A DNA stretch of 42,138 bases from IMG/VR virus record IMGVR_UViG_2526164691_000033, positions 1 through 42,138 of that record; one strand, written 5' to 3'. Both the position numbers and the translations under genes were made by a program. The notes under the pieces were generated by a model. It saw only the letters and a program-made list of their open reading frames with translations. It was not told the DNA's origin and ran no database searches. Source of the DNA: a virus. Taxonomy: Duplodnaviria; Heunggongvirae; Uroviricota; Caudoviricetes. Of the stretch, positions 6,356 through 6,808 are shown piece after piece. The stretch's first letter is position 1, and every line of letters begins with the position of its first letter.

Positions 6356-6459
6356 GTTAAATCTCCAGATAGTCGCAGCACCCGTTGCGCCGCATATCCG
6401 GTTATTCTATTACCTGAAAAACCACATATGGATATATAACCCATAAATACGAACAGATA

Positions 6460-6474
6460 TTACCTTTCAGGTGA
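6460..6474. promoter_or_regulatory. imperfect operator motif TTACCTTTCAGGTGA
   Basis: One mismatch from TTACC-N5-GGTAA; 40 bp upstream of the LexA box. Confidence 0.35.
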
Positions 6475-6513
6475 TTCGCAAAACGTGCTGGATAGCAAAC
6501 AAATTATTTGATA

Positions 6514-6529
6514 CTGTATATTTATACAG
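6514..6529. promoter_or_regulatory. LexA (SOS) box
   Basis: taCTGTATATTTATACAGtt fits CTGT-N8-ACAG with AT-rich spacer, near the consensus TACTGTATATATATACAGTA; ends about 22 nt upstream of the 6551 start codon. Confidence 0.65.
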
Positions 6530-6550
6530 TTATTGCATGGAGAAGATAAG

Positions 6551-6808
6551 ATGCAGCAGTATCACTATCCACTGGAAGACGGATTTACCGAAAGGATTCA
6601 CACGCCGGGAGGCGTCAGGTCACTGGTGGAGGGATCGCACTTGATGAAATTACTCCGGGATCTCGATAAGGATGGATTTAATGTCGATGGCCCACTTGCC
6701 GAACTGACTGCACTGATTAACTACGTCACCAGCTCACAGATGTCTATGCGGGATCTGCAAACACATCTCGACTATTGTGCCGAACAATTACGAAAACAAA
6801 CCAGATAA
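6551..6808 (+). CDS. small protein homologous to the C-terminal domain of the adjacent antirepressor; candidate SOS-induced mini-antirepressor
   Basis: GGAG 8 nt upstream of ATG at 6551; product aligns by eye with the Ant C-terminus (shared L-M-x-LL, DG-x-V-x-G-x-AEL, LRD-x-QTH-x-Y; about 40 percent identity over 70 aa). Confidence 0.6.
   Translation: MQQYHYPLEDGFTERIHTPGGVRSLVEGSHLMKLLRDLDKDGFNVDGPLAELTALINYVTSSQMSMRDLQTHLDYCAEQLRKQTR

Follow-up and report, generated by a model that had tools for sequence, protein, structure and literature searches.

A LexA box and an SPC32H-type antirepressor gene as a probable SOS-induction module in a phiV10/epsilon15-like temperate podophage

The window analysed here, a stretch of 42,138 nucleotides comprising positions 1 to 42,138 of IMG/VR virus record IMGVR_UViG_2526164691_000033, carries a near-consensus LexA box directly upstream of a gene for a small antirepressor (ant), and elsewhere a gene for a repressor (rep) of the kind targeted by such proteins. 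We conclude that these elements very probably form a switch for SOS induction in a temperate podophage of the phiV10/epsilon15 type, and that this switch is orthologous to Ant/Rep of Salmonella phage SPC32H. The box, the gene, their homologies, the synteny and the pattern of conservation were observed directly in the sequences compared below. Searches of the phage collection with DNA and protein sequences placed the window among the phiV10/epsilon15-like podophages of the genus Uetakevirus, with Escherichia phage HEMP4 as the nearest phage (98.9%), and an integrase gene lies at the right end of the window. An earlier note on this DNA had proposed an SOS-triggered small antirepressor acting against a non-cleavable repressor. 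That proposal is supported, as the same function has been shown for the SPC32H orthologue, to which the window is tied by an 87% identical Ant, a full-length Rep match, the position of the box and the box change seen in SPC32N. The accompanying implication that the system is novel did not survive the comparison, since SPC32H Ant/Rep has already been characterised and crystallised; the LexA-ant finding is correct but already known, and repeats a published mechanism.

The LexA box and the small antirepressor gene

The elements of the ant locus are as follows.

Start at 6355, minus strand: tailspike gene, divergent neighbour of ant
6512-6531, no strand assigned: LexA (SOS) box TACTGTATATTTATACAGTT, with the core CTGT-N8-ACAG at 6514-6529
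6539-6542, plus strand: ribosome-binding site GGAG of ant, 8 nt before the ATG and invariant in the alignment of relatives
6551-6808, plus strand: ant, SPC32H-type antirepressor of 85 aa, identified by PDB, PHROG and SPC32H ant matches

The box TACTGTATATTTATACAGTT lies in the intergenic region 6356-6550 that is common to the tailspike gene and ant, and differs from the LexA consensus TACTGTATATATATACAGTA at two positions, with sequence and core as the earlier note described them. It was the sole site within three mismatches of TACTGTATATATATACAGTA in the 42 kb scanned, and none of 100 shuffled sequences gave any such site. The pattern CTGT-N8-ACAG was also matched at 21390 and 25932, where the spacers are GC-rich and the scores do not exceed 10.6 bits. 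On a position weight matrix derived from 21 SOS boxes of E. coli (recA, lexA, umuDC, sulA and others), whose scores are indicative only and are not a published heterology index, the window box reached 27.4 bits, exceeding all 21 training sites (12.7-26.5 bits; best umuDC, 26.5). The second-best score within the window was 10.6 bits. The weight-matrix scoring that had been suggested as a check thus came out in favour of the box, and both this gap and the mismatch scan agree with the statement that the window holds no other LexA box. The box had been said to end about 22 nt before the open reading frame; it does lie upstream of the frame, at a distance of 19 nt from the box end to the ant ATG, or 21 nt counting from the core. 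The ribosome-binding site had been called good, and the GGAG at 6539-6542 in front of the ATG at 6551 bears this out.

A sigma-70 scan called no promoter at the LexA box. Hexamers picked by hand (TTGATA at 6508-6513; TGGATA at 6489-6494 with TACTGT; TATATT at 6517-6522) were rejected, as none was both well spaced and conserved. The assignment of the LexA box as overlapping the ant promoter rests on position, conservation and the SPC32H report.

A PDB sequence search with the small open reading frame returned a single match, 5D50 chain E, named 'Anti-repressor protein' (86 aa, E = 1.4e-46), which is the Ant of Salmonella phage SPC32H. Window Ant and the annotated SPC32H ant product are identical at 72 of 83 residues (87%). 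The protein also matched PHROG 450 (E = 7e-48), and its homologues in Enterobacteriaceae, which formed 147 clusters, are nearly all 85-86 aa long. Homology to the C-terminus of the neighbouring antirepressor, encoded at 7124-7834, had been proposed and was recovered here (43% identity over 74 aa, E = 4e-16), the C-terminus of the larger protein likewise matching PHROG 450 (E = 7.6e-36). Two descriptions of the small protein need correction. The 'Ant-C domain' attributed to it is not the Pfam family so named, because neither it nor the Bro-N protein matched ANT/KilA-C (PF03374) at E <= 0.01; nor is it merely the C-terminal module of a Bro-N antirepressor, the stand-alone form of 85-86 aa being the characterised archetype. 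A Pfam match of the small protein to DUF724 (17 bits) lay far under the cutoff and was discarded as spurious, and no Pfam family was otherwise matched. Some relatives gave three tblastn places for Ant, and a third Ant-like copy was sought in the window, where two are present.

When Ant was compared by tblastn with 50,697 phage records (E <= 1e-5), 35 records were matched, all of them epsilon15/phiV10-like phages or Klebsiella/Enterobacter phages with the same gene. The Ant of ZX5 (vB_EcoP_ZX5) is 98.8% identical to that of the window and is annotated 'hypothetical', and its LexA box is intact. The gene is divergent from the tailspike or tail-fibre gene in SPC32H, epsilon15, phiV10, Tyrion, BUCT554 and three Klebsiella phages. 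The small Ants of the Klebsiella loci L006, L007 and L008 share the motif DGHDVSGAAAEL with Bro-N-fused C-termini, unlike the small Ants of E. coli and Salmonella phages, a hint that stand-alone and fused forms have undergone exchange.

In nine Uetakevirus relatives, SPC32H included, the LexA box occupies the same position and aligns column by column, and it is kept across relatives whose Ants are 59-100% identical to that of the window. We also inspected 80 IMG/VR loci whose Ant product is >=98% identical, found by a single-protein scan of viral contigs. In 76 of these CTGT-N8-ACAG stood 19-20 nt before the ant ATG, with invariant arms and six different spacers, a set that informs on selection on arms versus spacer, the depth of conservation being given by the annotated phage records. 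The four exceptions comprised two cuts at contig ends, one loss of the left half of the box and one open reading frame that the script did not find. One of the two contig-end cases (L085) runs into Nextera adaptor sequence upstream of ant. In L084 (IMGVR_UViG_2563366870_000004) the left half of the box is replaced by unrelated sequence (...GACCCATAAACATACAGTT), which could represent a natural derepressed variant or a rearrangement.

Natural variation in the box was also seen among the annotated phages. In the Klebsiella branch (L006, L007, L008) the left arm reads ATGT in place of CTGT and the box scores 19.6 versus 27 bits, which may make control by LexA weaker in that branch. Over the 5.2 kb compared, two bases distinguish SPC32N from SPC32H; one of the two changes, ACAG>AAAG, falls inside the LexA box and cuts the score from 24.9 bits in SPC32H to 18.5 bits in SPC32N. 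Kim & Ryu 2013 (J Virol 87:11775) reportedly describe a single change in the LexA site that led to constitutive Ant and a lytic phenotype, and the SPC32N change agrees with this. Judged from the IMG/VR loci, the small ant and its LexA box are under clear purifying selection.

The repressor, its putative operators and the proposed switch

The elements that concern the repressor are listed here.

35985-36569, plus strand: rep, 194-aa non-cleavable repressor and presumed Ant target (PDB match; HTH families only)
6459-6475, no strand assigned: palindrome ATTACCTTTCAGGTGAT resembling the Rep operator, 37 nt before the LexA box, with arms conserved in relatives
35529-36704, no strand assigned: cluster of Rep-operator-like palindromes flanking rep (35529, 35914, 36627, 36688), from the motif count
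6459, 6839, 7900, 25402, 28544, 28562, 33504, 33566, 35529, 35914, 36627 and 36688: positions given for ATTACC-N5-GGTAAT 17-mers

Rep matched the PDB entries 5D50_A/5D4Z_A, 'Repressor', from end to end (E = 4e-42). The window protein shares 42% identity with its SPC32H counterpart and is 100% identical to the repressors of phiV10 and ZX5. Its C-terminal part, which contains the reported contact with Ant, aligns without gaps with SPC32H Rep. Pfam matched HTH-type families only and no Peptidase_S24, in line with the statement that this prophage repressor lacks an S24 autocleavage domain.

The palindrome ATTACC-N5-GGTAAT is probably the Rep operator. Allowing up to two mismatches it gave 15 matches in the window where 1.1 were expected, and the copies are mostly intergenic and clustered around rep. 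For the equivalent of the 6459-6475 palindrome, the epsilon15 record gives the annotation 'protein_bind repressor / lysogeny'. In SPC32H the same motif clusters around rep, with 8 matches in 1.8 kb against 0.09 expected, despite the two Reps being 42% identical.

Taken as a switch, these elements would work as follows. In a lysogen, host LexA would occupy 6512-6531, directly in front of and partly within the ant promoter region, and keep ant silent, and Rep, as an HTH repressor without an autocleavage domain, would keep the lytic genes off. Upon DNA damage, active RecA would promote self-cleavage of LexA and the 85-aa Ant would be made. Ant would then bind the C-terminal domains of Rep and break up the DNA-binding Rep tetramer, which would leave its operators and give way to lytic growth. 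LexA binding and SOS induction in the window phage are deduced by analogy with SPC32H. The same goes for binding of Ant to Rep, since the Reps of the two phages share no more than 42% identity. In SPC32H, Rep binds DNA as a tetramer, and Ant, itself a tetramer, associates with two Rep dimers and breaks that assembly apart (PMC9638917), making its contact via the C-terminal tetramerisation domain of Rep (PMC9986798). Kim & Ryu 2013 is cited among the systems in which self-cleavage of LexA releases an antirepressor (PMC7380047; PMC9437464), and ZX5 is inducible with mitomycin C (PMC9782041).

The closest known system is SPC32H Ant/Rep (Kim & Ryu 2013, J Virol; Kim et al. 2016, PNAS; PDB 5D50, 5D4Z). 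The two phages belong to the same genus, Uetakevirus, and share a small Ant (85 versus 86 aa) whose gene is divergent from the tailspike gene, a LexA box equally far upstream of ant, and a Rep family with two HTH-type regions, a C-terminal tetramerisation and Ant-binding region and no S24 domain. They differ in host (E. coli versus Salmonella), in the sequence of Rep (only 42% identical) and in the box spacer (ATATTTAT in the window, ATGTTTAT in SPC32H). Unlike SPC32H, the window phage adds a C4-RNA-controlled Bro-N/Ant-like gene directly downstream.

Phage 186 Tum and the antirepressors of Gifsy-1, Gifsy-3 and Fels-2 are reportedly LexA-controlled small antirepressors as well, in work ascribed to Shearwin 1998 and Lemire 2011. 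The locus had been said to fit the architecture of 186 Tum and Gifsy-type prophages. This holds for the logic, in which a LexA-repressed small antirepressor is made under SOS induction and inactivates a non-cleavable repressor by contact, but the repressor family differs, no sequence similarity was found and SPC32H Ant/Rep is closer. The tblastn of Ant against the 50,697 phage records (E <= 1e-5) detected no kinship with 186 Tum, GfoA or GfhA, and membership of Ant in a Tum/Gifsy family was rejected as the search returned only Ant-bearing phages.

The adjoining Bro-N cassette

Between ant and the gene for the Bro-N protein lies a spacer of 315 nt, which, as read from the elements below, is a separate regulatory cassette of the P1-immI type that the earlier note had overlooked.

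6839-6855, plus strand: operator-like palindrome TTTACCTTTGCGGTAAA, TTTACC-N5-GGTAAA, adjoining the promoter-like site
6856-6884, plus strand: promoter-like site TTTACA-17-(TG)CATAGT, from the sigma-70 scan
6891-6967, plus strand: IsrK-like leader RNA, Rfam RF01394, 67.2 bits (gathering score 50)
6916-6922 and 6932-6939, plus strand: C4 targets in the leader, a1 TTGGCGT and b1 CTAAGTGG, from complementarity to C4
6945-6961, plus strand: terminator hairpin and U-run ending the leader, from the terminator scan
6992-7075, plus strand: C4-type antisense RNA, Rfam RF01695, 66 bits (gathering score 45)
7033-7040 and 7047-7053, plus strand: C4 loops b' CCACTTAG and a' ACGCCAA, complementary to the targets
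7078-7084 and 7105-7112, plus strand: C4 targets a2 and b2, with b2 overlapping the Shine-Dalgarno sequence GGAG (7111-7114) of the Bro-N gene
7124-7834, plus strand: Bro-N protein with an Ant-like C-terminal domain (residues ~153-234), predicted second antirepressor (Pfam Bro-N, E = 1e-19)

The arms of the palindrome at 6839-6855 and the -10 hexamer of the promoter-like site are invariant in five phages, and the spacer varies. The transcription start predicted near 6891 falls on position 1 of the isrK model, and a match to the c4-a1b1 target model RF03163 at 6878-6930 scored 44.3 bits, just below its gathering score of 46.7. Loops b' and a' are exactly complementary to a1/b1 and a2/b2, and CTAAGTGG occurs twice only in the whole window, at b1 and b2. 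Across the five phages the three b and three a sites vary in concert: b reads CTAAGTGG in the window, CTAAAAGG in ZX5 and phiV10, CTACA(A/G)AGG in Tyrion and CTAA(A/G)CGG in the OXA245 phage, and the a sequence changes from TTGGCG to TTGGTC in Tyrion. These changes in C4 loops and targets amount to compensatory covariation. The b specificity thus differs between the window and ZX5/phiV10, though their Reps are identical. Among the relatives, phiV10, Tyrion, Kp4865-1 and ST11-OXA245phi3.2 have the cassette, and SPC32H, epsilon15, BUCT554 and BUCT711 lack it.

In P1 immI, a promoter under the main repressor is combined with C4 antisense control of the antirepressor (PMC8198154), and the Gifsy-1 isrK locus is of related design (PMC4825925). 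Like the c4-icd-ant arrangement of P1/P7 immI, the window cassette consists of an a1/b1 leader, C4 and then a2/b2, with b2 over a ribosome-binding site and the promoter apparently under the main repressor. Unlike P1 immI it has no upstream open reading frame resembling icd/orf45, and the ribosome-binding site under b2 is that of the antirepressor gene itself. The encoded protein also differs from P1 Ant1/2, being a Bro-N domain fused to an SPC32H-Ant-like domain. It is 81% identical overall to ORF4 of ZX5, with one difference over the C-terminal ~165 residues. Overexpression of ZX5 ORF4 lowered lysogens from ~1e9 to 1e6, a ~1000-fold drop (PMC9782041), which supports an antirepressor role for the Bro-N fusion; that paper, the one experimental study of an E. 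coli relative, examined only the Bro-N ORF4 as antirepressor (PMC9782041).

Two further features were noted in this region. Just past the ant stop codon, a 12-bp perfect inverted repeat, CAAGAGGAGTGC / GCACTCCTCTTG at 6822-6833 / 6864-6875, has the operator-like palindrome and the cassette promoter's -35 between its arms; ZX5 and phiV10 retain the repeat, Tyrion and the OXA245 phage do not, and it could serve as a terminator for ant or as a regulatory hairpin. Two overlapping open reading frames of 108 aa and 170 aa lie downstream of the Bro-N gene at 7958-8783, preceded by the operator-like palindrome at 7900-7916. The 170-aa frame gave a weak, sub-threshold YafO-toxin-like match (E ~1e-3), and the pair may be a moron or toxin-antitoxin-like.

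We tentatively suggest, as a possibility that falls a little short of an even chance, that two antirepressors with a common Rep-binding domain are present in the phage, with Ant responding to SOS via LexA and the fusion responding via the Rep operator and C4, and that the differing C4 specificities of phages sharing a Rep constitute a second immunity layer in the style of P1/P7. If so, upon superinfection by a relative whose C4 differs, the fusion of the incoming phage could be made and could induce a resident prophage with the same Rep. The available literature yielded no description of such a dual-input or second-immunity arrangement for Uetakeviruses, and the tandem arrangement with a C4-controlled Ant-domain fusion is the only part of the locus that is modestly new.

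Alternative readings and implications for induction

The Bro-N/Ant-like fusion could be the working antirepressor and the small Ant redundant or auxiliary. We consider this improbable, even though ZX5 ORF4, with its single difference in the Ant-like region, cut lysogens against an identical Rep. The fusion cannot sense SOS alone, because its gene has no LexA box and is under the control of C4/IsrK and probably Rep. Moreover, SPC32H, epsilon15, BUCT554 and BUCT711, from which the cassette is absent, all keep the LexA-box-ant unit, and the small gene and its box are under clear purifying selection. Nevertheless, the small Ant may not be the sole inducer, because the second antirepressor promotes lytic growth in ZX5 when overexpressed.

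The target and the control of the small Ant can also be read differently. Action mainly in trans, on the repressors of other prophages and not on the resident Rep, would fit the far greater conservation of Ant than of Rep (87% versus 42%, window versus SPC32H), and trans-acting antirepressors are documented for Gifsy prophages (PMC3121763; PMC7380047). Yet all phage records with this Ant also carry a Rep of the same family, and the gap-free alignment of the Rep C-terminal part preserves the reported contact; cross-reactivity would in any case come on top of action on the resident Rep and would not replace it. We hold a role mainly in trans to be very unlikely. To the reading that the box serves the divergent tailspike gene, or is a chance palindrome next to an open reading frame expressed independently of SOS, we assign next to no probability. 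The box does lie in a shared divergent intergenic region, and no consensus promoter was called at it, but it stands 19 nt from the ant ATG versus 157 nt from the tailspike start, and the distance to ant is fixed in relatives. Chance is further opposed by the failure of all 100 shuffles to produce such a site and by the natural box mutation that separates SPC32N from SPC32H. A LexA-controlled small Ant directed against the resident Rep is the reading that we retain.

The practical value of the analysis lies in annotation. The ant orthologue is still a 'hypothetical protein' in phiV10, ZX5, TL-2011b, O157 typing phages 9 and 10 and almost all E. coli phage records, and the same label is attached to most of the genome-derived Ant clusters. 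Recognition of the LexA-ant module would explain how prophages of O157 and other E. coli respond to mitomycin C though their repressor cannot self-cleave. Inducibility matters for phiV10 in particular, because this phage is in use as a reporter phage.
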